NCBI GenBank assembly: GCA_951812955.1
Contig: OX638340.1
Span: 864,001 to 928,000 of the forward strand
Direction of reading: 5' to 3'
Source: an uncultured Gemmatimonadota bacterium
GTDB taxonomy: Bacteria; JAAXHH01
DNA length: 64,000 nucleotides
Part shown: piece after piece, positions 16,371 to 50,434 of the stretch
Position numbering within the stretch: position 1 is the first letter of the stretch
Layout: the number at the start of each line of letters is the position of its first letter
Translations under genes and position numbers: made by a program
The notes under the pieces: model-generated
Databases searched by the model: none
What the model was told of the DNA's origin: nothing
Seen by the model: the letters and a program-made list of their open reading frames with translations, nothing else

Positions 16371-16432
16371 CTACTGCAGCGTTCTTCAATGGAAACCCGC
16401 TCATCATGAGGCAATCTCGACCTCGTCCATTC

Positions 16433-18017: not shown

Positions 18018-18072
18018 GACATCTGACGTATCCTTCTGATTCTGATCGACCACCCTCGACCTGGAGGTTTGC

Positions 18073-19065: not shown

Positions 19066-19127
19066 ACGGTATCAGCACGTAACCGGCAAAGATCCTTTCA
19101 TCATCCAGCATACCAAAGGGGAAACAA

Positions 19128-20159: not shown

Positions 20160-20244
20160 GCGGTAAATGACCAGGAGCCGGGAAACTGCACGCGGAAGTT
20201 TTGTTTTTAACTGAATTGCGGCTTACTTGACCGGGCAAGCGGGG

Positions 20245-20826: not shown

Positions 20827-21064
20827 TTCGAGTCCGGCCGTTTTCAGTGAAGGAGTCGGAAGCCGAGGAGTCCCGGGGATCGATCTTCCTCCCCGGTCCA
20901 TGTCAAAACCGGGCTGAATATACAGTTTTCTCGAGGTCCTGTCAAAGTGGATGTGCACGGGGTATATTGTCCTTGACGATGTACTCGCGGCCGGTTTGTA
21001 TTAAGACGCTTCTCTTCTTCTAATACACCGAAATTCCAGTGCATGGTGGCAACGGAGGAACAGC

Positions 21065-22465: not shown

Positions 22466-22495
22466 CCATCAGATTCAGGAGTAGAGGAGTTTCAG

Positions 22496-24073: not shown

Positions 24074-24097
24074 CCGGGGCTGCCGTGTACGTCGAGA

Positions 24098-24157
24098 ATT
24101 GCCGGATCAGGACCGGGAGATCGGGAATAGCCGGATCAGGACCGGGAGATCGGTGGA
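24098..24157. repeat. 30-bp x2 tandem repeat (AT(T/A)GCCGGATCAGGACCGGGAGATCGG) between convergent genes
   Basis: Two near-identical adjacent copies at 24098-24127 and 24127-24157. Confidence 0.65.
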
Positions 24158-24259
24158 AAGCATCTGCCGTACTGCCGGGCGTTGCAATCGGCTGGACGGG
24201 ACGGGGCAGGCGGCCTGATCCCGTTCGCGGGGTTAACTCCGGACAACTCATAGCGCCCC

Positions 24260-25102: not shown

Positions 25103-25168
25103 GCCCGTCCTTTCTTCGATGTCAAAGTTGATCAATACAGTGGCCGGCAGCCGGGTTGCGTGGGAGAA

Positions 25169-32082: not shown

Positions 32083-33063
32083 TCAGTAGGCCAGGAGATC
32101 CCGTAGGGCCGCGGTTACTTTCTCCGTGTTCGGCAGGAAATAGTGCTCCAGCGGCGGACTGAAGGGTACGGGCGTGTCGATGGCCGCCAGCCTGCGGACG
32201 GGCGCGTCGAGATGCTCGAAGGCCTCTTCGGCCACGACGGCGGCGATTTCACCGCCGAAACCGCCGGTCAGCGTGTCCTCATGTACGATCAGTAGCCGGT
32301 TCGTCTTCCGAACGGATTCGAGGATCGCCTGCTTGTCATACGGCAGCAGGGACCGCAGGTCGATCACCTCAGTCTCTATCCCCTCGCCGGCCAGGGTCTC
32401 GGCGGCGTCCAGGCTGTGAAAGACCATCTTGCCGTAGGTGACGATCGTCGCATCGATGCCCTCCCGCCGGATCGCCGCCTCACCGATGGGTACGGTGTAA
32501 TCGTCTTCAGGGATCTCTTCCCGGATCCGGGGAAAACGGTACAGGCCCTTGTGTTCAAAATACAGCACCGGGTTGTTGTCCCGGATTGACGACTTGAGCA
32601 GGCCCTTCGCGTCGTAGGTCGTTGCCGGCGCCACGACCTTGAGACCGGGGACCTTGCAGAACCAGGCCTCGGGATTCTGGGAGTGGAAGGGGCCGGCGTT
32701 GCCGATGGCGCCGGAAGGGCACCGCACCACGAGGGGCACGGCGGCGCCCCAGCGGTAGTGCGCCTTGGCCGCGTTGTTGACCAGTTGATTGAAACCGCAG
32801 GTAATGAAATCGGCGAACTGCATTTCAGCCACCGGCCGCATGCCCATGATCGCCGCGCCCATGGCCGCGCCGATGATGACCGATTCCGCCACGGGAGCGT
32901 CGATCACCCGGTTTTCCCCGAAATCGTCCAGGAATCCCTTCGTGATCTTGAACGCCCCGCCGTAGACGCCGATGTCCTCGCCCAGGCAGAAGACGCTCTC
33001 ATCCCGTTCCATCTCTTCTCGGAGTCCGGCCGATATGGCTTCCAGGTAGGTTACGGGCGGCAT
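32083..33063 (-). CDS. 2-oxoacid dehydrogenase E1 beta subunit
   Basis: Transketolase-like Pyr and C-terminal domains. Start refined to MPPVTYLEAI, 23 nt after the E1alpha stop. Confidence 0.85.
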   Translation of the reverse strand: MPPVTYLEAISAGLREEMERDESVFCLGEDIGVYGGAFKITKGFLDDFGENRVIDAPVAESVIIGAAMGAAIMGMRPVAEMQFADFITCGFNQLVNNAAKAHYRWGAAVPLVVRCPSGAIGNAGPFHSQNPEAWFCKVPGLKVVAPATTYDAKGLLKSSIRDNNPVLYFEHKGLYRFPRIREEIPEDDYTVPIGEAAIRREGIDATIVTYGKMVFHSLDAAETLAGEGIETEVIDLRSLLPYDKQAILESVRKTNRLLIVHEDTLTGGFGGEIAAVVAEEAFEHLDAPVRRLAAIDTPVPFSPPLEHYFLPNTEKVTAALRDLLAY

Positions 33064-33085
33064 AGTCTGGTTCCGATTGGGGACA

Positions 33086-34111
33086 TCAGTCCGCGTAGAC
33101 CCCGTCGAGCGCTTCTTCGGGTTCGGGAAGGGGGCTTTGTTCCGCGTAATCGACCGCGTCATCGACGATGCCCTTGACTTCTTCCTTGATCCCGTCGAGC
33201 TCTTCGCGGGTAAAGTACTGCCGTTCCAACAGGAGGTTTTCAGTTTTCGTGACCGGATCGTTGTTCCAACCGTCCTCAATAATATCCTTGGGAACATAAA
33301 AAGCGTCGTCGTGCTGGGCGTGACCCAGCAACCGGGTACAACGGGCCTCGATGAGCGTCGGACCGCCGCCCTCCCGGGCGAGCTCCACGGCGGTCCGCGT
33401 CGCCTTGTACATGGCGCGCACGTCCGTGCCGTCCACCAGCGAACCCGCGATGCCGTAACCCTGCGCGCGGTCCACGATGTGCTCGCAGGCGTACTCGTAC
33501 CGGGTCGGGGTGGAGTAGGCGAACTTGTTGTTCTCCACGATCAGCACCATGGGCAACCTGTGTACGGCCGCGAAGTTGAGTCCTTCGTGAAAGTCGCCGA
33601 TACTAGAGCCGCCCTCGCCGATGTAGGTGAGGGAGACCGCGCCGTCGCCGCGGATCTTGCTGGCCAGCGCGACGCCCGCGGTCACGGGAATGTTCGCGCC
33701 GAGATGACTGATCATCCCGACGATGTGGTGATCCCAGTTCCCGCAGTGCATGTTGCCGTCTTTACCCGCCGACGGTCCATTGGCCCGGCCGAGGTACTGG
33801 CACATCATGTCCCGGGCGGTATGGCCGCGAAGAAAATGGGCGCCGATCACCCGGTGCATGGGGACCAGGACGTCCGCATCGCCCAGTGCGTGGGCGCTGC
33901 CCGCGGCAATCGCCTCGTGTCCCGCGCCCGCGTAGGCCGCGCCCACGAGCCGGCCCTGCCGGAAGAGCCGGTAAATGCGCTCCTCGAATTCCCGCTGCAG
34001 GCGCATGGTAAGAAACAGTATTCGATAGTCGTCCCGACCGAGGCCGAGATCGTCGAGGCCGGACTCGTTAAGGTCGGGATCGGACAGGGCGGGGGCGGTC
34101 TCAACGTTCAT
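33086..34111 (-). CDS. 2-oxoacid dehydrogenase E1 alpha subunit (TPP-binding)
   Basis: GEGGSSIGDFHEGLNFAA...ENNKFA TPP-binding motif. 341 aa. Confidence 0.85.
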   Translation of the reverse strand: MNVETAPALSDPDLNESGLDDLGLGRDDYRILFLTMRLQREFEERIYRLFRQGRLVGAAYAGAGHEAIAAGSAHALGDADVLVPMHRVIGAHFLRGHTARDMMCQYLGRANGPSAGKDGNMHCGNWDHHIVGMISHLGANIPVTAGVALASKIRGDGAVSLTYIGEGGSSIGDFHEGLNFAAVHRLPMVLIVENNKFAYSTPTRYEYACEHIVDRAQGYGIAGSLVDGTDVRAMYKATRTAVELAREGGGPTLIEARCTRLLGHAQHDDAFYVPKDIIEDGWNNDPVTKTENLLLERQYFTREELDGIKEEVKGIVDDAVDYAEQSPLPEPEEALDGVYAD

Positions 34112-34144
34112 GGCGCCTCCTGGGTGCGAAATGGCGTATTTTGT

Positions 34145-34825
34145 TCATATTCTTTGTTTCAATTCAGGCAGGCTCATCTCTTCAAAAGCCATACCAAAAA
34201 CGTCGCCCAGGTTTCGGAGGAGGCTGTTTTCGACATCCTCCATCGTAACCGGCCGGCCGAGTATCCGCTCCATCGAGCTGACCTCGCGGTCGGCGATGCC
34301 GCAAGGGACGATCCCTTCATACAGGGACAGATCGGGATGGACGTTCACGGAAAACCCGTGCATGGCAATCCACCAGCTGACCCGAATACCCAGGGCTGCG
34401 ACTTTACTGTTTTCTACCCAGACTCCGGTAATCCCCTCCAGGCGGCGGGCCGCGATACCGAAATCTCCCAGCAGTCCAATGATCACCCTTTCGAGATCGC
34501 GCAGGAACCGGTAGACGTCCTGGTACCACGCCGCGATATCGAAGATGGTGTAGCCCACCAGTTGGCCGGGACCGTGGCAGGTAATGTCTCCTCCGCGGTC
34601 CGTTTCGTAGACCTGGATGCCGTGGGCCTGGAGCGATTCTTCCCCGTAGAGCAGGTGATCGCCTGCCCTCAGCCTACGTCCGATCGTGTACGTGGGGGGA
34701 TGTTCGAGAATCAGGAGCACATTGTCGATCAGGCCGGAACGACGCGCCGCGAGCAGTTGTCGCTGAAGAGAAAGCGCCACGCCGTAATCCATCGTGCCGG
34801 CCCGAACAACCCAGCAAGGCAGCAC
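34145..34825 (-). CDS. lipB: Lipoyl(octanoyl) transferase
   Basis: Motifs LLILEHPPTYTIGRR and ACHGPGQLVGY, with the catalytic Cys and Lys regions. The start may be the internal MDYG at 34792. Confidence 0.75.
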   Translation of the reverse strand: MLPCWVVRAGTMDYGVALSLQRQLLAARRSGLIDNVLLILEHPPTYTIGRRLRAGDHLLYGEESLQAHGIQVYETDRGGDITCHGPGQLVGYTIFDIAAWYQDVYRFLRDLERVIIGLLGDFGIAARRLEGITGVWVENSKVAALGIRVSWWIAMHGFSVNVHPDLSLYEGIVPCGIADREVSSMERILGRPVTMEDVENSLLRNLGDVFGMAFEEMSLPELKQRI

Positions 34826-34904
34826 CTGCCCTCCTCATACACGGCGACCTCGTATACCACAGGCCATATACCCCGCGTAAGCTATGGTTTCGCGGGCTGT
34901 CGTG

Positions 34905-35747
34905 TCAAGGTTTTTCTCCCTCGACAATGGCCCCGTAGAACTCCACTCTGCGGTCCTCCAGGCGGTCGAGCTCATAGGCCTTGGCCACGTTCACGATGTG
35001 CTTTTCCCGTGCGCCGGCCAGGTCCACGTCGGCAAAGATGATCTCTTCGGTGGACCGGTCCCCTTCCGCCAGCGTCCGCCCGGTATAATCGACGATTTTG
35101 CTCTGTCCGATGAAGTTGGTGCCCCGTTCTCTTCCGACCCGGTTCACGGCGACGTAATTGATACGATTCTCGAAGGCGCGGGTATTCACCACGAATTCGG
35201 TGTTGCAGTCGGCGCCTACCGGCCAGTTGGTGGGCAGGGCGATCAGCTCCGCGTCGCGTAGCATCATCACCCGGGCGCTTTCGGGGAACGCCGCGTCGTA
35301 ACAGATATTCAGGCCGATTCGGCCGACTTCCGAATCGTACACGCGGAAGGGGCGGTCACCGGGGGACAGGAACCGGTCGATTCCGAGAAAGGGGAGGTGG
35401 ATCTTGCGGTAGTGTCCGATCAACCCGTTGGGAGCGATGAGGACCGCCGTATTGTAGATACTCGATCCATCGGCCTCCAACAGGCCGACGATGACGTGGA
35501 TGTCCAGTTCGCTGCACCGCCGTTCGATGCGTTCGGTGAAAGGACCGGGAACGGGCTGGGCGGACGCCCGGGCTTCGTCCAGGTCGTAAAAGCAGTAGCC
35601 GGTCAGCGCGCACTCGGGAAACACGGCCAGGTCGGCGCCTTCCCGTGAGGCAGACTGCATCGCGTCGAATACCTTGATCAGGTTCTGTTCGGTCTCGGCG
35701 AGTTTCAGATCCATCTGCACGCCGGCGACCCGGATGGTGTCTCGCAT
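34905..35747 (-). CDS. Carbon-nitrogen hydrolase (nitrilase-superfamily amidase)
   Basis: The E-K-C triad contexts FPECALTGY, RKIHLP and NICYDAAFPE are present. Confidence 0.85.
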   Translation of the reverse strand: MRDTIRVAGVQMDLKLAETEQNLIKVFDAMQSASREGADLAVFPECALTGYCFYDLDEARASAQPVPGPFTERIERRCSELDIHVIVGLLEADGSSIYNTAVLIAPNGLIGHYRKIHLPFLGIDRFLSPGDRPFRVYDSEVGRIGLNICYDAAFPESARVMMLRDAELIALPTNWPVGADCNTEFVVNTRAFENRINYVAVNRVGRERGTNFIGQSKIVDYTGRTLAEGDRSTEEIIFADVDLAGAREKHIVNVAKAYELDRLEDRRVEFYGAIVEGEKP

Positions 35748-35757: not shown

Positions 35758-36912
35758 CTAGCTTTTTCTATACGCTGGCATGGCGCTCAATCCGGTCGAG
35801 GAAGGATGGAAAAGCCGGGTCAGGTGGGCTTCGATGACGCCCCGGTTGAGATCGGGACGCTCCATGCAGGCGACGACCAGTTCATGGTCCACCTGTTCCG
35901 TCATTTCAGCGATGGCCTTCATGCGGTCGATGGAATTGATCAGGGCCTGCCGGATGGGGATGCGTTCCGGAAAGATGTCGATGCCCATGTAACCGCTGTA
36001 GCCATACATCTTCAGCGCGTACATGCCGGCGAAGATCTGCTCCGGTGAAACGATGCCGACCTGCAGGTCCTGGTCGTAATTTCCCAGGGGCTGGCTGTTC
36101 CAGTGCGTGTGGGCCAGCCTTCCCTGGCGAAGAATGCGGCTCAGGGCATAGGGGAAATCCTCGAACCCCATGAGGACGTGGCCGAGTTCGGGATTCAAGC
36201 CCACGATGGCGTGACCCTCATCAAGAAGCGCTCGATTTTGGGGGGCCTGGAGCCGCTCGTCCACGTTCTGGGCCATGAGTATGCCGTCCGTCGTGTTCCG
36301 GTAGATGTTATTGCCCCGGGGCTCGTAAGGCTTCGGTTCGATGGCCGTTCGAACCCCCGGCACGGCGTCCAGCGCCTCGGCAAGTCCCGATTCGAAGAGG
36401 TCCCACATGGCAAAGAAATCGGTCCCGAAATTCAGTTCGTAGCCGTCGCCTCCAGGCCACACGACCATGAAGTCCGTGTCCAGTTCCCGGTTCATCCGCA
36501 GCGTCTCGATCACCCGGTCTATGGCGGCGCGGCGCGCTTCGGGCACGGGAGAGGACAGAGAACCGAATTCGAACCGGGCGTCCCAGAAGAGATTGGGAAT
36601 CACTGTAACCAGCCGCACGCCTGTATCCTTCTCCAGTTGCTGGTAAAGATGGGCGTTGTCTTCGTTGATCTCGTTGGGATAGTGGGCCTCGATCCCGCAC
36701 AGCCCGAATTCCGCCAGTTCGCCGGCAATGGCTAGGCGCTCTTCGATGGAATAAGGATCCATGTAGGCTTCGTGAAACCGGATCTGTGACGGCGAGAAGA
36801 ACCAGACGCCGGCGGTGATCTTCAGTTCCAGCGTATGGCTTCCGAGATGACGCACAAGGTCATCGCCACTGCGCTTCGTCGCCTGGTCCCGCAAGTCTGC
36901 GAACATAGCCAT
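35758..36912 (-). CDS. Xylose-isomerase-family (XylA-like) TIM-barrel sugar isomerase, divergent
   Basis: 384 aa. VVWPGGDGYE is like WGGREGYE, IEPKPYEP is like IEPKPKEP, and NPELGHVLMG is like NxExNHAxLAG, in the canonical XylA order. Confidence 0.55.
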   Translation of the reverse strand: MAMFADLRDQATKRSGDDLVRHLGSHTLELKITAGVWFFSPSQIRFHEAYMDPYSIEERLAIAGELAEFGLCGIEAHYPNEINEDNAHLYQQLEKDTGVRLVTVIPNLFWDARFEFGSLSSPVPEARRAAIDRVIETLRMNRELDTDFMVVWPGGDGYELNFGTDFFAMWDLFESGLAEALDAVPGVRTAIEPKPYEPRGNNIYRNTTDGILMAQNVDERLQAPQNRALLDEGHAIVGLNPELGHVLMGFEDFPYALSRILRQGRLAHTHWNSQPLGNYDQDLQVGIVSPEQIFAGMYALKMYGYSGYMGIDIFPERIPIRQALINSIDRMKAIAEMTEQVDHELVVACMERPDLNRGVIEAHLTRLFHPSSTGLSAMPAYRKS

Positions 36913-37048
36913 CTCCTGAGGTTACGCGGTGTTGGTTCAGATGGGTTCTGGTTCGGATGATCAGCGTTTCGATTCGGTAGGTTCCTGTGAAAAATAATAG
37001 GAGGCTCTTCGGGTACTGTCAACTGGTATATCCCTTTCAAAAGAGCGC

Positions 37049-38071
37049 TTGACACCTGATACCAAATCGCCGTATTTACCCCTTCATCCCGTTAATAACA
37101 ATGGCCTTGCACGGCCCGGAAAGGAACTGCTTTTGCGCGTTGTCGTTACCGGCGGTGCGGGATTCCTGGGATCCCATCTATGCGACCGTTTGCTGTCCGA
37201 CGGCCACCAGGTAGTCGCCGTCGACAATCTGATTACGGGCCGGACCGTAAATATCGCCCACAACATGGACCGCGACGGGTTCTCCTACATCCGGCAGGAC
37301 GTATCCGAGTACCTGGACATCGACGGCGACGTGGACTTCATCATGCACTTCGCCAGTCCCGCCAGTCCGGTGGATTTCGAGCGTGTGCCGATCCAGATCC
37401 TGAAAGTAGGCGCTCTGGGCACGCACAACGCGCTCGGTCTGGCCAGGGCGAAGGGCGCGGGGTTCTTCCTGGCATCCACCTCCGAGGTTTACGGCGACCC
37501 GCAGGTCAACCCGCAGCCGGAAAGCTACTGGGGCAACGTCAACCCGATCGGAGTGCGGGGCGTCTACGACGAGGCCAAGCGCTTCGCGGAGGCGCTGACC
37601 ATGGCCTACCACCGAAAGCACGGCATCGACACGCGGATCGTCAGGATCTTCAACACTTACGGTCCGCGAATGAGGCCTGCGGATGGACGGGTCGCGCCTT
37701 CTTTCATCACCAAGGCGCTCAGGGGCGAACCGCTGACTATCTTCGGAGAGGGGCGGCAGACCCGTAGTTTCTGCTATTACGAGGATCTCATGGAAGGCAT
37801 CGTGCGGCTCATGCATTCCGGCGAGCACGGACCGGTAAACATCGGAAACGAAAACGAAATTACCATACTTGAACTCGCGCGCACCATCCTCCGGCTATGC
37901 GATTCAGACAGCGAGATCGTCTTCCGGCCGCTTCCCCAGGACGATCCACAGCTTAGGCGGCCGGATACGACAAGGGCCCGGGAGATCCTGGACTGGGAAG
38001 CCCGCGTGACTCTGGATGAGGGGATGGGGAAGACCATCGAGTATTTCAGATCCAACGACGCGTCCGGCTGA
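37049..38071 (+). CDS. NAD-dependent epimerase/dehydratase, UDP-glucuronate decarboxylase (UXS)-like
   Basis: [24 protein letters not shown] and YDEAKR (YxxxK) motifs; a TTGACA-N18-TATTTA promoter lies upstream. The true start may be an internal GTG/TTG. Confidence 0.8.
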
Positions 38072-38100: not shown

Positions 38101-39138
38101 ATGACAACGACCGACGCCACGCGACCCGCCGCGGAGGAAGGACCGGGGCAAGTACGCATCGAAGCCTTCCGGGAAGGACGGGAGAAGATCCTGGCCGAAG
38201 TGCGCAAGGTAATCACCGGCCAGGAAGAGGTCCTGGAGCAGGTGCTGATCGCCCTGTTCGCGGGAGGCCACTGCCTCGTGACCGGCATGCCCGGGCTCGC
38301 AAAGACGCTGCTCATCAAGACCTTCGCACAGGTATTGGACCTGGAATTCCGGCGAATCCAGTTCACGCCCGATCTCATGCCCGCAGACATCACCGGTACC
38401 GAGATCCTGGAGGAGGACAAGGCCACCGGCCAACGTCGGCTGAATTTCATCAAGGGCCCGATATTCGGCAATATCGTGCTGGCCGATGAAATCAACCGCA
38501 CACCGCCCAAGACCCAGGCCGCCCTGCTCGAGGCCATGCAGGAGCACCGCGTGACCGCGGGCGGCACGACTTTCCAGCTGGATGAACCCTTCTTCGTCCT
38601 CGCCACCCAGAACCCCATCGAACTGGAAGGTACCTATCCCCTGCCCGAGGCCCAGCTCGACCGGTTCATGTTCAACATCCACATCGACTATCTGAAGGAA
38701 GACGACGAGGTGGCGGTAGCCCGCTCGACGACCTCCGCCGAAACGGCCTCAGTCGACACCGTACTGTCGGGCAAGGTAGTCGGGGAGTACCAGCGGCTTG
38801 TCAGGGAAGTCCTTGTCTCCGAGCAGGTTGCGCGGTACGCCGTACGCCTGGCATCCTCGAGCAGACCCTCCAGAGGGGAAGCGCCGGATTTCGTCGAAAA
38901 CTGGGTTTCGTGGGGGGCCGGCCTGCGCGCCTCCCAGTACCTGATCCTGGGCGCCAAGGCCAGGGCGCTGCTCGACGGCCGGGGACACGTTTCCTGCGAC
39001 GACATCCGATCACTCGCCCATCCGGTCCTGCGCCATCGCATCCTGACGAATTTCTACGCAGAGGCGGAGAAGATAACGCCCGAACACATCGTAGATCGGC
39101 TGCTCGGCACCGTTCCGGCGCCGCAGTCCGGCATGTAA
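38101..39138 (+). CDS. MoxR-family AAA+ ATPase
   Basis: LVTGMPGLAKT Walker A, VLADEINR Walker B/sensor, about 345 aa. Confidence 0.9.
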   Translation: MTTTDATRPAAEEGPGQVRIEAFREGREKILAEVRKVITGQEEVLEQVLIALFAGGHCLVTGMPGLAKTLLIKTFAQVLDLEFRRIQFTPDLMPADITGTEILEEDKATGQRRLNFIKGPIFGNIVLADEINRTPPKTQAALLEAMQEHRVTAGGTTFQLDEPFFVLATQNPIELEGTYPLPEAQLDRFMFNIHIDYLKEDDEVAVARSTTSAETASVDTVLSGKVVGEYQRLVREVLVSEQVARYAVRLASSSRPSRGEAPDFVENWVSWGAGLRASQYLILGAKARALLDGRGHVSCDDIRSLAHPVLRHRILTNFYAEAEKITPEHIVDRLLGTVPAPQSGM

Positions 39139-39166
39139 TCAAGCACTCAAGCGCAACGGCACTGCC

Positions 39167-40096
39167 ATGGCTGAAATCCCGCGGTTTTTGGATCCGAATA
39201 CCCTTTCCCGCCTGTCCTCGATGGAGATGCGCGCCCGCATCGTGGTCGAAGGATTCGTGTCTGGTCTCCACAAGAGCCCATACCGGGGTTTCGGCGTTGA
39301 GTTCGTGGAATACAGGCAGTATACGCCGGGCGACGACGTCCGGCACGTGGATTGGAAAACCGTGGCGCGGTCGGACCGGTACTATGTCAAGGAATACGAG
39401 GACGAAACCAACCTGCAGTGCGTGCTATTGCTCGATTGCAGCGCGTCCATGGGTTATCGCTCCGGGCAGTCCGGGCGGTCAGGGCAGTCCGGGCCGTCAG
39501 GCGGATTGGACAAGCTCGAATACGGTTCGTACCTGGCGGCGTCCCTGGCGCATCTGATCATGCGGCAGGGAGACGGCGTGGGCCTCGTCACCTTCGACCA
39601 GGCCGTCCGGGATTATCTTCCGCCCAGTTCGAAGAACACCCAGCTGCCGGCCATTCACACCATGCTCGATGGACTGCGCGCCTCCGAAGGGACCGATATC
39701 GGCAAACCCCTGCATGAACTTGCCGAATCGATATCCAGGCGGGGACTGGTCATCCTGATTTCCGATCTGATCGATGACGTCGATGAAATGATGAATGCCC
39801 TGATGCACTTCCGTTTCAAGGGACACGAGGTGCTGGTGTTCCATATCGTCGACCGGGAAGAACTCGACTTCTCCTTCACGGAGACGGCAAGATTCGACGA
39901 TCCAGAGACCGGCGAGCGAATCACGGTCACGCCTTCGGCCATTCGCGAAGACTATATGGATGCCGTTCAGACGTTCATGGAGTCGATCAGGACCGGTTGC
40001 GCGAAGATCAAGGTCGACTACGAGCGCATGGAAACCGAAAGACCGCTGGATTACGCGCTGTTCTCCTATCTGAGCAGGCGCACGGTGAAGCAATAG
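39167..40096 (+). CDS. DUF58 protein (vWA-like, MoxR partner)
   Basis: GxEFxxxRxY-type N-terminal motif (YRGFGVEFVEYRQYTPGDDVRHVDW), about 309 aa. It carries an in-frame SGQSGRSGQSGPSG mini-repeat. Confidence 0.8.
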   Translation: MAEIPRFLDPNTLSRLSSMEMRARIVVEGFVSGLHKSPYRGFGVEFVEYRQYTPGDDVRHVDWKTVARSDRYYVKEYEDETNLQCVLLLDCSASMGYRSGQSGRSGQSGPSGGLDKLEYGSYLAASLAHLIMRQGDGVGLVTFDQAVRDYLPPSSKNTQLPAIHTMLDGLRASEGTDIGKPLHELAESISRRGLVILISDLIDDVDEMMNALMHFRFKGHEVLVFHIVDREELDFSFTETARFDDPETGERITVTPSAIREDYMDAVQTFMESIRTGCAKIKVDYERMETERPLDYALFSYLSRRTVKQ

Positions 40097-40122
40097 GGTA
40101 AGCTCCCGCATCGGGTTACGTC

Positions 40123-42195
40123 ATGGATCTGGCCTTCCTCAACGTTACTTTTCTCTTTGCGGCCCTGGGCGCGGCGATACCGCTGATCCTGCATCTGGTC
40201 AGAAGACAGCGGGCCGGGATCCATGTCTTCAGCATGGTCCGTTTCCTCGTCTCGACCCAGCGGGCCGTCGTTCGCCAGCAGAAAATCCGGCGACTGCTGC
40301 TGCTGCTGCTTCGCATGGCGGCCTGCGCGCTCCTGGCCGTGATATTCGCACGGCCCTTCGTCCGGGATCAGAACGAATCCTTCTTTACGGGCACCCAGCC
40401 TGAAGCCGTGGCGATACTGGTCGATACTTCCTACAGCATGGGATACGGGAATCGCCTCGCCCTGGCCAGGCGCAGGGCCGCGGAAGTCGTGAACACGTTG
40501 CAAACCGGCGACCAGGTCGCCCTGCTGACCTTCGCCGTTCAGGCCAGGGTCGTGCGGGAACTCGGGCCGGACCATTCCGGATTGCCCGCCCTGTTGGACA
40601 CCGGGATCAATTCGACTTTCGAAGGAACGGACTACGTTGAAGCGCTGCGCGCCGCCGACGATCAACTGAGCGGGGCGGACTTCGACAAACGCACCCTCTA
40701 CCTGGTGTCCGATTTTCAGCAGTCCGGCTGGAATCCGCGGTCGGCCGGATGGAAACTCAGTCCGGGCGTTCAGCTCAGGCTGATCGACGTCGGGGACGAG
40801 CAGGATGGCAATACGGCCGTCACCGGGGTGGAAATACCGGCCGCGCTCTCGGGCGAGAACCGGACGCTCGACGTGGTCGTCCGGGTCCGGAACTACGGGC
40901 AGGCGCCTGTCCGGGACGAACTCACGCTTCGGGTCAACGGGAACGCAGTCGAGAAGCGGCTGGTCGATATTGCTCCGCACTCAGGCCGGTTGGAGAACTT
41001 CAGGCACACTTTTGAACCGGCAACGAATACGGGCGAGGTGATCCTGGGAGATGACGAGCTTCCGGTGGACAACCGGTTTTACTTCACCGTGAATGCGCCT
41101 TCTCCCGTGCGTGTTCTCTGCCTGGAGGAGCGCAGGCGCCCGAACCGGCTGTCGGAAGCCGCATACTACCTGTCCCAGGCCCTGTCGCTGCGCCAGGATC
41201 CGCCGGTCGTGGTAGATGTACGATCCCCCCGTGCGATGCCCGAAGTCGATCCCGCGCAATACGACGTGGTCATTTCGTCCAACCTTTCCGTCCTGCCACG
41301 TAGCGCGAAGACCAGGCTGACCGACTATGTACGTTCGGGCGGAAGCTTGATTATCGCCTTGAATTCCGCCGTTTCTCCCGATATATTCCATTCGTCTTTC
41401 GGCGAACTGCTGCCTGGACGCATCGAGTCTTTGTCATCCCCCGACGCCCCACGCGACCGGTACCGGCTGTTGACCGGCGTGAACTACCAGCACCCGGTCT
41501 TTCAACCCTTCTCCGGTCCCCGGCATGGTGATTTCGGCACGGTACGGTTTTACAGGACGGCTCGGTTCGATCCAGACTCCTCGTCGTCGGTTCCGGCACG
41601 GTTCGACGACGGCAGCGCCGCGGTAGCGGAGAAGTCCCTGGGAAACGGCCGCACGTTCCTGGTCCTGACTACCTTCGATCTTTCGTGGACCGACTTTCCC
41701 ATACGCGAGGTATTCGTACCTTTTCTATACGAGAGTATCGACTACCTGGCTTCCCGCGGGTCCATGCACGGACGCGGGACCGATTTGTACCGGCTGACGG
41801 GGGAGGCGGTCAGACTGCCGGAAGATGCACGGCACGTTGAAGTTCCATCCGGCGAGCGGATCCCGGCGGAAGCGTCGCAGTCGGGAACGAAGCTGTTTAC
41901 GCGGACGGAGAGACCGGGGTTGTACCAGGTACAGTCGGAAGGAGCCCAACACGCGTTCGCGGTCAACCTCGACACCCGTGAATCCGACTTTACGAGGTTG
42001 GACGTGGAATCCTTCGCGTCTGCGCTGATCAATCCCGTGGCCCGGAGCCCGGAGTCGCGGGAAACGGAGACGCTGGCCAGGCTGGCCCTGGACTCCGAAG
42101 TGGAGCGCCGCCAGCGACTCTGGTGGTTTCTCGGATTCACGCTGATCGCACTGGTCCTCGGAGAAACTTTCCTGGCAAATCGAACGCACAGGTGA
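40123..42195 (+). CDS. BatA-like protein: N-terminal double-TM anchor plus a vWA domain plus a 400-aa C-terminal extension
   Basis: Two N-terminal TM helices with a RRLLLLLLR motif, and a MIDAS DTSYSMG motif. 690 aa. Confidence 0.7.
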   Translation: MDLAFLNVTFLFAALGAAIPLILHLVRRQRAGIHVFSMVRFLVSTQRAVVRQQKIRRLLLLLLRMAACALLAVIFARPFVRDQNESFFTGTQPEAVAILVDTSYSMGYGNRLALARRRAAEVVNTLQTGDQVALLTFAVQARVVRELGPDHSGLPALLDTGINSTFEGTDYVEALRAADDQLSGADFDKRTLYLVSDFQQSGWNPRSAGWKLSPGVQLRLIDVGDEQDGNTAVTGVEIPAALSGENRTLDVVVRVRNYGQAPVRDELTLRVNGNAVEKRLVDIAPHSGRLENFRHTFEPATNTGEVILGDDELPVDNRFYFTVNAPSPVRVLCLEERRRPNRLSEAAYYLSQALSLRQDPPVVVDVRSPRAMPEVDPAQYDVVISSNLSVLPRSAKTRLTDYVRSGGSLIIALNSAVSPDIFHSSFGELLPGRIESLSSPDAPRDRYRLLTGVNYQHPVFQPFSGPRHGDFGTVRFYRTARFDPDSSSSVPARFDDGSAAVAEKSLGNGRTFLVLTTFDLSWTDFPIREVFVPFLYESIDYLASRGSMHGRGTDLYRLTGEAVRLPEDARHVEVPSGERIPAEASQSGTKLFTRTERPGLYQVQSEGAQHAFAVNLDTRESDFTRLDVESFASALINPVARSPESRETETLARLALDSEVERRQRLWWFLGFTLIALVLGETFLANRTHR

Positions 42196-42198
42196 CCC

Positions 42199-45100
42199 AT
42201 GACATCTGAACGTTCCATCCTGCAATCCTGCCTGCGCAGCGTCCTTCGCCGCTGGCGTCTCATGTTTGTCTTCCGAGGCGTCTCGGTGCTCGCGATCGCC
42301 GGAGTGATGCTATTCATTTGCGGCGTGGCGGCCCTGCATTTGTTTGACCCCGGAGTATTCGCCCGCATCCTGTTCCTGGCCGGCGCCACGGGAGCCCTCG
42401 GTTGGCTCGCATACCGGTTCCTGCTCGTTCCGCTTCGCCGAACGCCTACGGACCTGCAGGTCGCCCGTTACATCGAAGAACGGCATCCCGCCTTGAACGA
42501 CGCCTTAGTCAGCGCCGTGGAATACGGCCATGGTCATCTTCGAAGACCGCAGAAGGTCCTCATGGACCAACTTATGGCGCACGTCGCCGACTACACCGAG
42601 CAGATCGACTTCAAAAAGATCGTAGACCGGAAGCGCTACTTTACCCTCCAGGCGGCCGCTGTCGGAGCCGCCCTCGTCCTTGCCGGCCTTGTCTTCCTGG
42701 AACCCGGGTTTTTCGGCCGTTCCGCCCTTCGCCTGGTGTCGTGGACCCATGCGGAACCGGCCGTTCCCGGAGGCATCAGGGTAGAGCCCGGCGACACGCG
42801 GGTCAGGCGAGGGGAAAGCCTGGACGTTACCGCCGTACTGGGCAGCGGTCTGACCCCGGACCCGAACCTGTTCGTCCGATTCGGAAATGACGAAAACTGG
42901 TCGACGCTGGATCTATACGAGACGGATGGCGAACGGACCTTCTCGAACCGCATCCACGGCATCAGCGAGGACGCCCTGTATTACGTCGCCGTGACCGGAA
43001 CCCGGTCGAAAGAATTCCACATTGCAGCGATCGATCCGCCCTATGTCGAACGGATCGACGCCCGGTATGTCTTCCCGGCATACACGGAGCTGGCCGCGAA
43101 GGTCGAGGAAGACCGCGGGGACATTACGGCGCCGGTGGACACGCGGGTCGCCCTGCGCATCACTGCGAGCAAGGCGGTGCGTTCCGCCGAGATGCGCTTC
43201 AGCAACGGTCGCGCGTTGGAACTCGCGGTTACCGGGTCAGACCTCGAGGGATCATTCGTCGTGCGAGAGGATCTCTCCTATTCCATACACCTGGTGGACT
43301 CGGACGACTTCGCAAATGACGACCCGGTGGAATACTACGTCCGGGCGCTGCAGGACCGGGCGCCCCGGGTGACCATCCTCGAACCGAAGCGGGATACACG
43401 GGTATCCCCTGTCGATGAGGTGACCATTCGCGCCGAGGCCGTGGATGATTTCGGCCTATCGACCTTCTCTCTCAATTACGCGGTGAACGGCGGCGAGGAA
43501 GTCCTGGTGGACCTGGGTGCGCTGCAGGACGAATCGAGCGGCACGGTCTGGGAAGGGGAACATGTGGTCTACCTGGAGAATCTTTCGGTCCAGCCGGGCG
43601 ATTTCGTCGCCTATTACGCGGAGGCGGGTGATCGCCGGAGCGAGGGCGGCACGTCCGCGACGGACATTTACTTTATCGAAATCACGCCTTTCGATGCGTC
43701 CTACCGGCAGGGCGAGGGCGGAAGCGGTGGCGGAGGAGGAGGTGCCGGGAACGACGTGATGCAGACGAGACAGCTTTCTCGCAAGCAGAAGGAGATCATC
43801 TCGGCCACGTGGCGCGTAAAGAGAACGCTCGCGTCAGTCCCCGGGACGGAGGTAGCGGAAGACCTCGAAGCGATCGCCGAGGTCCAGGACGCACTTAGGA
43901 GCCAGGCGGATGAAGCGCTCGCGTTCATGCGGTTCACGGTCGGGATTTCGAGCGAGTCCATGGAAATGGTCGAAATGCTGGAGCTGGCGCTGGAACCGAT
44001 GTCGGCCGCCTCCGAAGCACTGCGGTCCGGTTCGGTCGACGATGCCCTGGTCCACGAGCGTTTAGCGCTTATGTACCTCACGAGGCTCGATGCGCTGATG
44101 CGGGATTTTACTGTGAACAGGGCACGCGGCATGGCGGGCAGGGCTCCGCTGGACTTCTCCGACACCTCCGAACTCGAGCTGGAGGATGAAAGGAACAGGT
44201 ACGAGGTACCCGATCAGCCGGCCCTGGATCGCCAGAGGGAGCGGAGCATCGAAGAGCACCATCAACGTGTCCAGGACCTGGCCCGGCGCCAACAACAACT
44301 GAATAACCAGCTCCGGGAGCTGACGGAGGTGGAAGATCGCCAGGAAGCCGAACGCCGCAGGGAATTGGACCGCCTGACCAGGACGCAGCGTGAGCTCAGG
44401 GAAGAGACGGAGGAAATCGCGCGATCGCTCTCCGGGAACCGGACCGATCCGGCCAATCGGGACCCGCGATCGGGCTCCCCCGGTCCCATGCTGGAGCAAG
44501 CGAACCAGGATCTGCGTGACAGTTCCGAGTCGATGGGCGAAACGATCGAGCAACTGCGCAGGAACCAGCTGCGGCCAGCAGCGGAAGACGGCGCTCAGAC
44601 CGCACAGCATCTGGCCGACGCGTCCAGACAACTGAAGCGTGCGCAGGGGGAGTCGCTGGAGCGGCTGGCGAGGGAAGCGGCTAGACAGGCGGATCAGCTG
44701 GCTGTCCGGCAGGAACAACTCGAACGGAACGTCAACGCGTTGAAAGAGGAGAAGGATAACGGCTTCGAGGGCATCATCAACCGTTTGGACGCGATCGAAT
44801 CGCGGCGCGGCGGCCTGGACCTGGAGTCGGATACGCGGCGCCTGGACCGGTTTGTGCGCGAACGGTTGAGGGGGGTCGAAGCGGCAAAGGACGAAATCCG
44901 TTCCGATCTCGAACGGCTAGAGAGCGACCTGGACCACCTCGCCCGGAGTTCGTCCCGTGCGCAGGCCGGGACGGCGGCAGCCGCGGATCGGGCCAGCGAG
45001 ATGATCGATGACGAGCGGTTGAAAGAACAGATCGAGCAATCGAAGCGCCTTTTGAGACGGGACACCCTGGACCAGTCCGCCCTCAGGGAGTCGGAAATCT

Positions 45101-45624
45101 CCGAAGCAATGGACCGGCTGGCGGAACAGGTCCGTACCGCGCGGGACAAGCTGATTACCCGGGACATGGATCATCTGTCCCGTACGCAGGAAAGCGCTCG
45201 GGATGCCATGTCCGAATGGCAGAACCTCCAACGGCAGCTATTCAGATTGAACCGCGGCATTCCCAATTCCGAGACCCTGGACCAGATTTCCCGGGATTAC
45301 CAGCGTCAGTTGCAGCGTCTGCGGGATCTTTCGGGTCAGGTTCCGCAGATGTCCGGAGAAACGCGGCAGTTGCAGAACGACCTGGACCGAGCGCTCGCCC
45401 TCGGCAATGAACCGTGGAAGATCGACCGGGGCCAATGGAACGAACTCCATCTCAACCTGGCCCGCAGTCTCGGTGATTTCTACGACGGGCTGCGCGCGGA
45501 GGTACGGGATATGCGCCGCAAGGAGCGTCTCTACCTGGCCAGGGAAGAGGATGTACCCCCGGGATACAGGGACCTCGTGAATGACTATTTCGAGAAGCTC
45601 TCAAAAAACGGGGACAGCAACTGA
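42199..45624 (+). CDS. Large (1141 aa) membrane-anchored protein, DUF4175-like: 2 TM, a beta-rich region, a Gly-rich hinge and a ~600-aa charged coiled coil
   Basis: TM helices at residues about 20-75. Gly run GEGGSGGGGGGAGND at about 43711-43752. The C-terminal half is dominated by R/E/Q/L/D heptad-like sequence. It is the last gene of the MoxR-DUF58-vWA module. Confidence 0.5.
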   Translation: MTSERSILQSCLRSVLRRWRLMFVFRGVSVLAIAGVMLFICGVAALHLFDPGVFARILFLAGATGALGWLAYRFLLVPLRRTPTDLQVARYIEERHPALNDALVSAVEYGHGHLRRPQKVLMDQLMAHVADYTEQIDFKKIVDRKRYFTLQAAAVGAALVLAGLVFLEPGFFGRSALRLVSWTHAEPAVPGGIRVEPGDTRVRRGESLDVTAVLGSGLTPDPNLFVRFGNDENWSTLDLYETDGERTFSNRIHGISEDALYYVAVTGTRSKEFHIAAIDPPYVERIDARYVFPAYTELAAKVEEDRGDITAPVDTRVALRITASKAVRSAEMRFSNGRALELAVTGSDLEGSFVVREDLSYSIHLVDSDDFANDDPVEYYVRALQDRAPRVTILEPKRDTRVSPVDEVTIRAEAVDDFGLSTFSLNYAVNGGEEVLVDLGALQDESSGTVWEGEHVVYLENLSVQPGDFVAYYAEAGDRRSEGGTSATDIYFIEITPFDASYRQGEGGSGGGGGGAGNDVMQTRQLSRKQKEIISATWRVKRTLASVPGTEVAEDLEAIAEVQDALRSQADEALAFMRFTVGISSESMEMVEMLELALEPMSAASEALRSGSVDDALVHERLALMYLTRLDALMRDFTVNRARGMAGRAPLDFSDTSELELEDERNRYEVPDQPALDRQRERSIEEHHQRVQDLARRQQQLNNQLRELTEVEDRQEAERRRELDRLTRTQRELREETEEIARSLSGNRTDPANRDPRSGSPGPMLEQANQDLRDSSESMGETIEQLRRNQLRPAAEDGAQTAQHLADASRQLKRAQGESLERLAREAARQADQLAVRQEQLERNVNALKEEKDNGFEGIINRLDAIESRRGGLDLESDTRRLDRFVRERLRGVEAAKDEIRSDLERLESDLDHLARSSSRAQAGTAAAADRASEMIDDERLKEQIEQSKRLLRRDTLDQSALRESEISEAMDRLAEQVRTARDKLITRDMDHLSRTQESARDAMSEWQNLQRQLFRLNRGIPNSETLDQISRDYQRQLQRLRDLSGQVPQMSGETRQLQNDLDRALALGNEPWKIDRGQWNELHLNLARSLGDFYDGLRAEVRDMRRKERLYLAREEDVPPGYRDLVNDYFEKLSKNGDSN

Positions 45625-45675: not shown

Positions 45676-46656
45676 ATGCCCACCGCATTGATCAGCCATC
45701 CCGATCTCCTGCTGCACGACACAGGCTCCTTCCATCCCGAACGGCCGGAGCGCATTACGTCCGTTCTTTCCCACCTCGGCGTGTCCGGCGACGAATCCAG
45801 CAACGAATCCGGCGACGAATCCCCCGGCACGAACCGGACCGGCCTGGTGCGCCTGTCGCCGTCCGCAGCCGATGAAGCCCGGATCAAGGCCGTCCACGAT
45901 GCGTCGTATGTCGACGCGGTAGCGGCGTGGTGCGCGGAAGGGTACCGGATTCTGCCCACCGGGGACACGACCCTTTCTTCCGCATCCGAGACCGTGGCCC
46001 GAATGGCTGCCGGCGCGGCAATACGAGCCGTCGACGCGGTACTGTCCAGGGAAGCGGACCGGGCATTCTGTGCCATCCGTCCTCCCGGGCATCATGCCGA
46101 ATCCGACCGGGGGATGGGCTTCTGCATCTACAACAACGCCGCCGTCGCGGCCCGTTACGCCCAGTCCCGCTTCGGGGTGGAACGGGTGGTCATCCTGGAC
46201 TGGGATGTCCACCACGGTAACGGGACCCAGGAGATTTTCGAGGACGACCCGTCCGTGTACTATATCAGCGTTCACCAGTCACCGCTCTATCCCTTTACCG
46301 GTGCTATGTGGGAAAAGGGCAGGGGAGAAGGGACGGGGTACACGATGAACGTCCCGGTTGCCGCGGGGTCCGGCGACGCGGTTTTCGTCGACGTGCTGCG
46401 CGGGCAGGTCATCCCGGCCATGAAGTCCTACCAACCGGATCTCCTCATTCTATCGGCGGGATTCGACGCCCACGTGGACGACCCGCTGTCCGGTACCCTG
46501 GTCACCGACGCGGGATTCCAGACCATGTCGCGCATCCTGATGGACTTCGTGGACGACGCCTGCGGGGGCCGCCTCGTATCCCTGCTGGAGGGCGGTTATG
46601 ATCTTGAAGTCCTGGGCCGGTGCGTCGCGGACCACGTAGGCATGATGGCGTCCTGA
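45676..46656 (+). CDS. Histone-deacetylase-family (AcuC/HDAC-like) deacetylase
   Basis: Motifs GFCIYNNAA, DWDVHHGNGTQ and GGGY. It has a small SGDESSNESGDES repeat insert. Confidence 0.85.
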   Translation: MPTALISHPDLLLHDTGSFHPERPERITSVLSHLGVSGDESSNESGDESPGTNRTGLVRLSPSAADEARIKAVHDASYVDAVAAWCAEGYRILPTGDTTLSSASETVARMAAGAAIRAVDAVLSREADRAFCAIRPPGHHAESDRGMGFCIYNNAAVAARYAQSRFGVERVVILDWDVHHGNGTQEIFEDDPSVYYISVHQSPLYPFTGAMWEKGRGEGTGYTMNVPVAAGSGDAVFVDVLRGQVIPAMKSYQPDLLILSAGFDAHVDDPLSGTLVTDAGFQTMSRILMDFVDDACGGRLVSLLEGGYDLEVLGRCVADHVGMMAS

Positions 46657-46726: not shown

Positions 46727-48152
46727 ATGAGACGAGAAGACTACCTGCAATGGGCCGAACGCGCGGCCCAATGGGGCGCCAGTTACCTGGCTACGCTCGA
46801 AGACCGTCCCGTCCGGGCGCAGACCGAACCGGGCGAAATCGCCGCGATGCTGCCGGTTATGCCACCGGAAGAGCCGGTGGACATGGAGACGATCTTCGAC
46901 GATTTCGAGCGCATCGTGCCGGACGGTATGACCCACTGGCAACACCGCCGTTTTTTCGCGTACTTCAGCGCCAACGCCGCGCCGGCTTCGATGATCGCCG
47001 AACACTTGACGGCCGTCATGGCGGCCCAATGCATGCTCTGGCAGACCTCGCCCGCGGCTACGGAGATCGAGACCCGCATGGTCGACTGGATGCGACAGGC
47101 ACTCGGTCTGCCGGAGGGGTTTCGCGGGGTTATCCAGGAGTCGGGCACCTCGGCGAATATCTGCGCCGTACTGACCATGCGAGAGCGCGCACTCGACTGG
47201 CGTGGGAACGACACCGGATTGGCGGGAGAGCATCAGCTCCGAATCTACGCCTCGCCGGAGGGCCATTCGTCGATCGACAAGGCGATCCGGATCACCGGTA
47301 TCGGCCAACAGCATCTCGTCAAAATCCCGACAGATGGTTCCTGGGCACTCGACCCTGATGCCCTTGGCCGTTCAATCGAAGCGGACCTCGCGGCGGGCTT
47401 CCGGCCGGCCGGTGTCATCCTCTGCGTCGGAGGCACGTCGATCGGCGCCTCTGACCACGTGCGCAAGACAATCGAAGTATCACGGGCATACGGGGCTCTA
47501 CGTCCATGTGGATGCGGCGTGGGCCGGTTCCGCGATGATCTGTCCCGAACTGCGGGCATTGTGGACGGGCGTCGAAGGCGCAGACAGCATCGTCTTCAAT
47601 CCGCACAAGTGGCTTGGCGCACAGTTCGACTGCTCGATCCAGTTTCTTGCAGACCCCGAACCGCAGGTACATACGCTGGGAATCCGACCGGATTATCTCG
47701 AAACCCTGGACCAGCGCGATATAACCAATTACAGCGAATGGACGATCCCTCTGGGGCGGCGCTTCCGCGCCCTGAAGCTATGGTTTCTGCTCCGTGCCCA
47801 CGGTCTGGAGGACCTCCGCAACCGTATCCGGAACCATATCGCCTGGGCAGGGGAGGCCGCGGACGCTATCGCATCGCTGGACGGATTTCGCCTGGCGACG
47901 GAACGCCATTTGGCACTCTTCACGTTCCAGTATGCTCCTGATGGTGTGCATGCCGACGACGCCACCGAACGCCTGCTTCGCGCCGTCAACGATGACGGTC
48001 GGATCTATTTGACGCACACAGTTCACGAGGGACGGTTCGTCATCCGCTTCCAGATCGGACAGTTCGATTGCCGGCGGGAGGACGTGCTCTTCGCAGTCGA
48101 GGTGCTGCGTGAGCTGGCCACTAAAGTAAACGTGAGCTGGCCACCAAATTGA
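46727..48152 (+). pseudogene. Aromatic-L-amino-acid / group-II PLP decarboxylase split by a +1 frameshift in a GGGG run at about 47492-47495
   Basis: Frame A covers the N-terminal 255 aa (...GTSIGASDHVRKTIEVSRAYG). Frame B continues LYVHVDAAWAGS...NPHKWL (PLP-lysine motif) to 48152. Removing one G restores YGLYVHVDAAWAG, and the total of about 475 aa equals the family length. Confidence 0.75.
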
Positions 48153-50086: not shown

Positions 50087-50434
50087 ATGCCCGTCAACGA
50101 GATGATCCATACCATGCTGGAGGAATTGCGGCAGATCGCCGACACGGAGGTTCACGTGGGCAAACCCCTACATATCGGGGATTCCTATGTGGTTCCGGTT
50201 TCCAGGCTGTCCCTGGGGTTCGGTGCCGGGGGGTTTGGCGGCGAGGCCGATCAGAAGAGGGGGGCGGGGGGCGGTGTATCGGTCGAACCGGTCGCGTTTC
50301 TGGTCATCCAACAGGATCGCGCGCAACTGCTGCATATGAATTCGCCCAGCAGTCCCATGGGCAAGCTGCTGGATATCATGCCGGACGTCATCGAGGAACT
50401 GAAGAAGTATACCAGAAAAGACGGCGATCAGTAG
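50087..50434 (+). CDS. YtfJ/GerW-family (sporulation-protein-YtfJ-like) protein
   Basis: 115 aa. VVPVSRLSLGFGAGGFGGE...GGGVSVEPVAFLVI matches the glycine-rich GerW/YtfJ signature. Confidence 0.6.
   Translation: MPVNEMIHTMLEELRQIADTEVHVGKPLHIGDSYVVPVSRLSLGFGAGGFGGEADQKRGAGGGVSVEPVAFLVIQQDRAQLLHMNSPSSPMGKLLDIMPDVIEELKKYTRKDGDQ

Follow-up and report, generated by a model that had tools for sequence, protein, structure and literature searches.

The four genes at positions 38101–45624 of a 64,000-nucleotide stretch from an uncultured Gemmatimonadota bacterium (contig OX638340.1, positions 864,001 to 928,000; the whole stretch is referred to here as the window) are the four-gene core, in the order MoxR, DUF58, BatA and DUF4175, of a conserved set of about eight genes from which the module of the window has been reduced. 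It would seem somewhat more probable than any other reading, at a rough probability of 55%, that the core encodes an envelope-associated MoxR/DUF58 motor acting on two co-encoded, mainly periplasmic membrane proteins.

The four open reading frames (ORFs) are co-directional, on the + strand, and encode a MoxR-type (MRP-like) AAA+ ATPase of 345 amino acids (aa; 38101–39138), a DUF58 protein of 309 aa (39167–40096), a BatA/TIGR02226-type membrane protein of 690 aa that is anchored at both ends (40123–42195), and a divergent DUF4175-family membrane protein of 1141 aa (42199–45624). The gaps are 28, 26 and 3 nt, the last ORF starting 3 nt past the BatA-like stop; these coordinates and the strand are exactly those given by a first-pass annotation of the window, made from the letters and ORFs, and its naming of the first three products as MoxR, DUF58 and a BatA-type protein bearing a von Willebrand factor A (vWA) domain is borne out by Pfam and NCBIfam matches over the cut-offs. 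The presence of homologues at E = 0 to 1e-100, together with AlphaFold2 (AF2) models with a mean predicted local distance difference test (pLDDT) score of 79–80, indicates that these are real genes and not chance ORFs. For the two large proteins there are full-length homologues at identities from 97–98% down to 22–30%.

One genome per species was scanned with an alignment of the DUF4175 protein, in which 570 relatives were confirmed and the best 80 loci kept, 63 of these being informative for gene order in having at least 3.6 kb of upstream sequence (the KSB1 loci L026 and L053 are excluded). In 61 of the 63 the order is MoxR-DUF58-BatA-DUF4175, on one strand and with short gaps, and these loci span Gemmatimonadota, several classes of Acidobacteriota, and one metagenome-assembled genome (MAG) labelled as Bacteroidetes. 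In truncated loci where part of the upstream sequence is left, including KSB1 locus L053, a BatA-like gene is directly upstream of the DUF4175 gene. The first-pass annotation had made its module depend on whether the products of the genes at 40123 and 42199 keep company with MoxR and DUF58 elsewhere. That they do so in nearly all of the informative loci, with the order unchanged, supports the four genes being one module. The nearest records are MAGs labelled Gemmatimonadetes or Gemmatimonadota, and in some cases 'Latescibacterota', with L001 (JAPOOT010000270) and L012 (OY762445.1) being 96–99% identical across the locus; the isolate names suggest that the nearest relatives of the window stem from sponge and coral metagenomes.

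Two loci are exceptional. In L055 the fourth gene encodes a 1137-aa protein of extreme divergence, in which the size, a weak match to PF13779 (DUF4175), and the C-terminal motif VPP.YR..V..YF.KL are retained. In L062 (Blastocatellia bacterium AA13, QHVH01000011.1, 6879–13852) a gene for a BchI-like AAA+ protein and one for a BchD-like AAA+-vWA fusion are followed by the DUF4175 homologue, and there is no MoxR, DUF58, BatA or DUF4159 gene within 10 kb. This homologue is full-length and has the N-terminus with three transmembrane helices and the cytoplasmic motif that are found in the family, while the BchD-like fusion has a metal-ion-dependent adhesion site (MIDAS) motif, DASGS, and no convincing transmembrane helix. 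There appears to have been a non-orthologous replacement of the motor, which would make DUF4175 the constant partner of an AAA+/vWA motor. This suggests that the motor acts on the DUF4175 protein, with the contact on the cytoplasmic side, and is a strong hint of such an action rather than proof of it. The module had been described as having no identified client; this can now be put more sharply, as the swap makes the co-encoded DUF4175 protein the best candidate for a client or effector. A gene for a DUF7790 protein comes after the DUF4175 homologue in L062.

The MoxR-type ATPase matches PF07726 (AAA_3) at 211.8 bits (cut-off 27) and AAA_lid_2 at 56.9 bits (cut-off 22.7), and is 58–68% identical to the MoxR gene of the distant loci. 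Its Walker A motif (GMPGLAKT, residues 62–69, 38284–38307, +) and Walker B motif (IVLADE, residues 125–130, 38473–38490, +), both read from the translation, are intact. There is no notable transmembrane helix and no signal peptide, and the protein is predicted to be cytoplasmic. Its gene is adjacent to the DUF58 and vWA genes in the window, an association that is conserved in the same 61 loci. The DUF58 protein matches PF01882 at 163.9 bits (cut-off 23.4), with a secondary VWA_2 match of 30.8 bits, and a regular-expression scan identifies a MIDAS-type DxSxS motif in it, DCSAS (residues 90–94, 39434–39448, +). No hydrophobic segment or transmembrane helix was found in this protein by the hydropathy scan, nor is there a signal peptide. 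The vWA-type match, the DCSAS motif, and the absence of a transmembrane helix would together make DUF58 a likelier cytoplasmic adaptor of MoxR than the BatA vWA domain.

The MoxR protein also matches bpMoxR (PF20030) at 40.7 bits (cut-off 27), as might be expected if the module were a nucleoside triphosphate-dependent system for conflict or phage defence, built like the MoxR-vWA ternary ones. This is hardly credible: the AAA_3 score over that region of MoxR is five times as high, there is no β-propeller or effector domain by Pfam, in more than 20 related genomes the locus stands in syntenic housekeeping surroundings, and GC content is even across the module region. A defence-system reading was rejected, with 0 PADLOC matches for all four proteins.

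In the BatA-like protein there are matches to PF07584 at 53.5 bits (cut-off 25.9), to TIGR02226 at 61.5 bits (cut-off 23.05), a family that the first-pass annotation had rightly guessed at, and to VWA_2 at 41.7 bits. The N-terminal double-transmembrane hairpin (residues 1–78, 40123–40356, +) is identified by PF07584, by TIGR02226, and by hydropathy, which places the hydrophobic segments at residues 8–26 and 58–76. The vWA domain (40399–40797, +), which is predicted to be periplasmic, carries a complete MIDAS made up of D101, S103, S105, T169 and D197, including the DTSYS sequence at residues 101–105 that had been noted before. All 22 of 22 homologues keep D101, S103, S105 and D197, and 16 of the 22 have T169. 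The vWA domain matches 4jdu and 3ibs, the solved domains of BatA and BatB.

The rest of this protein had been called an unknown extension of 400 aa, which no longer holds, since recognisable folds are present along it. There is a CARDB-like β-sandwich (residues 226–325, 40798–41097, +; AF2 strands at 231–323, with weak profile matches to 2l0d, 2kl6 and 3idu), a class-I glutamine-amidotransferase-like (GATase1-like) domain of the ThuA/STM3548-like kind (residues 326–545, 41098–41757, +), a small β-domain seen in the AF2 secondary structure (residues 546–617, 41758–41973, +), and a C-terminal transmembrane anchor (residues 663–690, 42109–42192, +; 666–684 by hydropathy, within an AF2 helix at 643–689). 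The anchor belongs to the better-conserved blocks of this protein, behind the second and first transmembrane helices (TM2 and TM1). No Cys is conserved in the GATase1-like domain that could be the nucleophile of a Cys-His-Glu triad, which would mean that the domain is probably non-catalytic and has no amidotransferase activity. C333 is the sole Cys between the anchors.

The fourth protein is not recognised directly by any family. No Pfam or NCBIfam family matches the 1141-aa protein over threshold, with only a sub-threshold match to Big_7, and PF13779 does not match it even at E <= 10. TIGR02302, the alphaproteobacterial NCBIfam model for a comparable long membrane protein, matches none of the 18 aligned family members. 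Homologues that do bear PF13779 are 27–33% identical to it over 61–100% of the length, at E = 1e-100 and weaker, and in the 18-sequence alignment all 17 of the other members match PF13779 (best E = 7e-17). The part of the model that the family matches is at profile positions of about 200–330 and 620–760. This full-length homology to PF13779-matching proteins makes the protein a divergent member of the DUF4175 family by transitive homology. The earlier guess at DUF4175 is thus upheld through the relatives, although a direct match is absent. With the alignment profile, 26,213, 19,739 and 9,620 representatives of 50% identity clusters are matched at E <= 1e-3, 1e-10 and 1e-30, the first of these numbers being possibly inflated by the helical, charge-rich half of the protein.

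In an AF2 model of the fourth protein (pLDDT 79.4), three transmembrane helices lead into three β-sandwich domains, beyond which are helical bundles in tandem. The protein is not mainly a coiled coil, and the label of a coiled-coil protein given to it earlier is imprecise. Its predicted template modelling (pTM) score is 0.40, which makes the geometry between the domains unreliable. The TM1-TM2 hairpin (residues 28–74, 42280–42420, +) is supported by hydropathy and by AF2 helices at 4–49 and 53–80. Next comes a conserved stretch of about 75 aa that is predicted to be cytoplasmic and has the motif D.QVARYIEE..P.L.D.L.SAVE (residues 75–148, 42421–42642, +), in which 12 Lys or Arg are concentrated at the two membrane borders and A89 and E94 are invariant; this segment is a candidate docking site for MoxR/DUF58. 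After TM3 (residues 149–168, 42643–42702, +; hydropathy score 2.12) come the three β-sandwich, Ig-like domains (residues 193–495, 42775–43689, +; AF2, pLDDT about 90), which are better conserved than any other folded part and contain many invariant Asp and Glu. A Gly-rich linker in the AF2 model (residues 500–521, +) leads to an all-helical region of tandem four-helix bundles (43762–45606, +), where AF2 has about twenty helices in residues 521–1136, mostly of 25–45 residues each, and which ends in the conserved motif VPP.YR.LV..YF..LS. There are no Cys residues at all in residues 168–1141.

Within the helical region, a second Gly-rich linker is followed by an acidic motif, LDFSDTSELELEDERNRYE, with the family consensus DLSDLFELELDK..N.YET (44134–44214, +). 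The pLDDT falls below 50 at residues 643–672, yet this region has the highest block conservation (majority fraction 0.60), with Y668 and E669 invariant, and it is only here in the protein that low pLDDT and top conservation coincide. Since this would be a disordered, tethered and invariant peptide that shares a compartment with an invariant MIDAS, the motif (residues about 650–670) is a candidate for a tethered ligand of that site. Both this consensus and the motif of the cytoplasmic segment are kept across Gemmatimonadota and Acidobacteriota, as are SDIYF.E..PF at the end of the third β-domain and LS..QKEII.ATW after the Gly-rich linker, and VPP.YR.LV..YY..LS is kept at the extreme C-terminus of the DUF4175 family.

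The folds of the two large proteins might bring to mind a surface or periplasmic apparatus of the adhesion or motility type, in which the Ig-like domains, a GldG/IFT52-like (GIFT) domain of the GATase1 fold and a talin-like helical-bundle rod would bear force as they tie the inner membrane to the wall or outer membrane. The four-helix-bundle matches on which the rod would depend are generic, however, as designed proteins score equally well, and there are no linked secretion, pilus or gliding genes, so that this is very improbable. A PDB profile search with the DUF4175 alignment returned only compositional matches, to designed coiled coils and ApoA-IV, and these were rejected.

The disposition of the large proteins across the membrane can be predicted from their charges. 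The hairpin loop of the BatA-like protein (residues 25–57) has 9 Lys or Arg and no Asp or Glu, the N-terminus is without positive charge, and the tail beyond the last transmembrane helix is basic. By the positive-inside rule the loop would be cytoplasmic and residues of about 77–662, with the MIDAS vWA domain included, would be periplasmic. The description of TIGR02226 agrees in having the N-terminus out and the loop cytosolic. In the BatA homologue BB0173 of Borrelia, the vWA domain has been mapped experimentally to the periplasm (PMC5700661). The DUF4175-like protein has a basic N-terminus, a short TM1-TM2 loop without charges, and basic clusters on both sides of residues 75–148, from which about 75 aa are predicted to be cytoplasmic and about 970 aa periplasmic.

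A periplasmic BatA vWA domain would mean that this is not a classical cytoplasmic MoxR-vWA pair. The first-pass annotation had placed the module among the MoxR-vWA maturation systems, and while the pairing of MoxR with vWA proteins stands, the classical cytoplasmic arrangement does not fit the predicted location of the BatA domain. A classical maturase would insert a metal or cofactor into a client encoded elsewhere, or release such a client from inhibition, with the membrane proteins serving merely as tethers. The MoxR relatives CbbQO, NorQD, CoxD/E and BchI/D are established as working in this way (cited in PMC8926400), the MIDAS motifs are intact in both vWA-type proteins, and the MoxR protein is weakly similar to chelatase D and I subunits. 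A maturase is nevertheless unlikely here. The scores with the chelatase, RavA and GvpN models are far under the cut-offs, the BatA vWA domain with its MIDAS is predicted to be across the membrane from MoxR, and no candidate client gene is conserved beside the module across phyla, the conserved neighbours being exported, non-enzyme-like proteins and the membrane proteins of the module itself.

In most of the distant relatives, four accessory families are linked to the core: a TPR/Peptidase_MA protein (about 870 aa), a DUF4159 protein (about 260 aa), a GATase1_like protein (about 750 aa; an MG2 match is present in L025), and one of about 340 aa with weak similarity to peptidase C13. The eight-gene set is carried by L025, L081, L082–L086 and many other loci, and independent gene calls with precomputed Pfam matches give the eight-gene picture again in four further family members. 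In this cluster, found in Acidobacteriota and other Gemmatimonadota, the four core genes are full-length homologues of those in the window, at 27–68% identity and with the order kept. The accessory genes shift in position, the GATase1-like and C13-like genes being downstream in some Vicinamibacterales and the DUF4159 gene downstream in Pyrinomonadaceae, with linkage kept. All eight genes are present on plasmid 1 (1.1 Mb) of the cultured Gemmatirosa kalamazoonensis KBS708. Plasmid tblastn searches for annotated alphaproteobacterial copies returned only an unannotated Gemmatirosa replicon and one Planctomyces BatA protein.

Unlike the eight-gene cluster, the core in the window and in the loci of its own clade (L001–L023) is flanked by an SDR gene and an HDAC-like gene, with none of the four accessory genes within the 10 kb on either side in those loci, and none anywhere in the 64-kb window by tblastn (best E = 0.34). 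The DUF4159 profile has 7,912 matches in the protein database, and among the 120 matches listed all are from lineages other than that of the window. The signal-peptide-like N-termini of the DUF4159, C13-like and TPR/MA proteins of the relatives independently support action in the periplasm.

On the preferred reading, a cytoplasmic hexamer of the MoxR AAA+ protein would pair with the vWA-like DUF58 protein as its adaptor and act from the cytoplasmic face on the two inner-membrane proteins of the same operon. Of these, the BatA-like protein, held at both ends, would present a MIDAS-competent vWA domain, the β-sandwich and the GATase1-like domain to the periplasm, and the DUF4175 protein would present its three Ig-like domains and helical-bundle rod. 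ATP-driven remodelling would pass through residues of about 75–148 of the DUF4175 protein, and possibly also through the basic hairpin loop of the BatA-like protein, and would assemble or switch a periplasmic scaffold in which the Ig/helical-bundle rod is joined by the ectodomain of the BatA-like protein. An acidic ligand would be latched by the periplasmic MIDAS, perhaps the acidic motif of the DUF4175 protein, which is the best internal candidate.

The output of such a motor would most likely be envelope maintenance or stress tolerance, rather than cofactor insertion into an unlinked enzyme. RL3499–RL3502 of Rhizobium leguminosarum (Vanderlinde et al. 2011, J Bacteriol 193:2684, as cited in PMC5118466) is reportedly a broadly conserved four-gene operon that encodes two transmembrane proteins along with a MoxR-like ATPase and a DUF58 protein, and its mutants are reported to have envelope and morphology defects. 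These phenotypes, the oxidative and heat-stress phenotypes of moxR and batA mutants of Riemerella (PMC11834572), and the exported accessory proteins of the relatives point to this kind of output.

The Riemerella phenotypes would also suit a Bat-type aerotolerance or oxidative-stress system that manages periplasmic reducing power, as has been proposed for Bacteroides fragilis and Riemerella, and the module shares with such systems MoxR, DUF58 and a protein with the BatA N-terminal domain and a vWA domain that matches the solved BatA and BatB domains. This is quite improbable for the window, from which equivalents of BatB, BatC, BatD and BatE are absent: none was found in the module by Pfam (there being no TPR, BatD or SH3 domain), and tblastn of the window with the TPR/peptidase-MA protein found none. 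There is no redox domain or conserved Cys in either large protein, and Leptospira biflexa with all of its bat genes deleted has no detectable phenotype, including under oxidative conditions (PMC3557215).

The Leptospira result weighs as well against an envelope motor, as do several other points. The topology comes from hydropathy and the positive-inside charge rule, with the experiments on a homologue; if the vWA domain is indeed periplasmic, its link to MoxR would be indirect. The motor swap is a single locus, and the low pTM of the DUF4175-like model bears on any rod drawn from it. Kinship with the Rhizobium operon is plausible, its two membrane proteins being putative orthologues of the two here. 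The absence of the accessory genes from the locus in the window would suggest that the module here may work differently or be partly decayed.

A bolder form of the envelope motor would be an ATP-powered device for trans-membrane signalling or assembly, of a kind not yet described, in which the motor would grip the cytoplasmic segment of the DUF4175 protein and so steer a periplasm-spanning rod made of Ig-like domains and talin-like helical bundles, with the acidic peptide docking in the BatA MIDAS. This is unlikely. If it were true, it would serve the cell envelope as an energised ruler or latch, in which MoxR-DUF58 would be interchangeable with a BchI/BchD-like pair, and the sponge- and coral-associated lineage of the window would run it on four core parts alone.

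Upstream of the core, on the same strand, the SDR gene (37049–38071) ends 29 nt 5' of moxR, and downstream, also on the same strand, the HDAC-like gene begins 51 nt 3' of the DUF4175 gene, spacing that suggests that the transcription unit may be longer than four genes. The promoter and terminator scan gave counts equal to the shuffled expectation and no usable + strand signal for the module. Synteny of the SDR gene and of the downstream HDAC-like and aldo-keto-reductase genes is confined to the clade of the window (L001–L023) and does not extend to other phyla. The adjacency of the sugar enzyme, being conserved only there, says nothing general about function, and the UDP-sugar decarboxylase link was rejected as functional evidence. 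The first-pass annotation had drawn an envelope-associated function from this neighbour; the envelope itself is favoured by the predicted topology and by the exported accessory proteins of the relatives, while the sugar-enzyme argument for it is not.

The SDR protein is UDP-glucuronate-decarboxylase-like, with all NCBIfam matches under the cut-offs and with a motif known from UXS enzymes. Its TTG start at 37049 is probably too early, given that residue 31 is where the Rossmann motif sets in. As read from the sequence, translation is likely to start in truth at 37133, at an in-frame TTG that is preceded by GGAAAGGAA. The HDAC-family (acetylpolyamine-amidohydrolase-like) gene, at 45676–46656, is syntenic across the clade, including L020 and L021 (42–48% identity), and may be co-transcribed with the module. 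Beyond it, a gene for a pyridoxal phosphate-dependent decarboxylase (PF00282; 46727–48152) is split over two reading frames, with the ORF at 46727–47941 matching profile positions 1–226 and the ORF at 47202–48152, from its residue 97 on, matching 227–374. This indicates a frameshift near 47490, in either a pseudogene or an assembly error. The gene is missing from most relatives in the clade, where the HDAC-like gene is directly followed by the aldo-keto-reductase gene, and L008 and L012 match its N-terminal part only.

Elsewhere in the window, a near-consensus σ70-type promoter (TTGACA, 17 nt, TATTAT; 11 of 12 matches) is present on the - strand at 36994–37022, in a divergent intergenic region, where it faces a xylose-isomerase-like TIM-barrel gene (35758–36912). 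A 664-aa ORF at 50428–52422 (-) has no Pfam match at E <= 1e-5. A 654-aa TTG-initiated ORF at 33077–35041 (+) has no Pfam match and overlaps the well-supported transketolase-like (32083–33297) and CN-hydrolase (34905–35747) genes on the minus strand, and is probably a spurious shadow ORF of high-GC DNA. No RNA families were found in the window with Rfam.

In databases the proteins of the cluster go under labels like 'BatA domain-containing protein', 'DUF4175 family protein' or 'DUF4159 domain-containing protein', and literature searches on DUF4175, DUF4159 and TIGR02226 found no mechanistic study of it. MoxR-DUF58-BatA is among the most widespread of the bacterial clusters that lack a mechanism, the DUF4175 branch having some 10,000–26,000 representatives at 50% identity. 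The handles gained here are a minimal four-gene version in one lineage, a motor swap that points to DUF4175, and conserved motifs for mutagenesis. With Gemmatirosa kalamazoonensis as a cultured carrier, the question of what Bat and MoxR-DUF58 systems act on becomes somewhat easier to test.

Of the known systems, DUF4175 is also the label of AdvA, an essential division protein of Acinetobacter baumannii that likewise has N-terminal transmembrane helices (PMC7481262). AdvA may be a relative, and, unlike the DUF4175 protein of the window, it is not reported beside MoxR. With BchI/BchD, NorQD, CbbQO and RavA-ViaA the module shares the logic of an AAA+ motor and a vWA/MIDAS partner, but it differs from BchI/BchD and the other MoxR-vWA maturases in having no linked cofactor-bearing client and in the predicted periplasmic location of its main MIDAS domain. 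The Bat operon of Bacteroides, spirochaetes, Francisella and Riemerella has the same order of MoxR, DUF58, and a BatA-type protein with a double-transmembrane N-terminus and a MIDAS vWA domain. In the window, however, the BatA-like protein is much longer, through the addition of the β-sandwich, the GATase1-like domain and the C-terminal anchor, and the next gene is that for DUF4175, which is not part of the Bat operon, so that this is not a canonical Bat operon. The locus therefore adds no new system to these, and is a member of the known MoxR(MRP)-DUF58-BatA class of clusters, of which its reduction to four genes is the distinctive trait.

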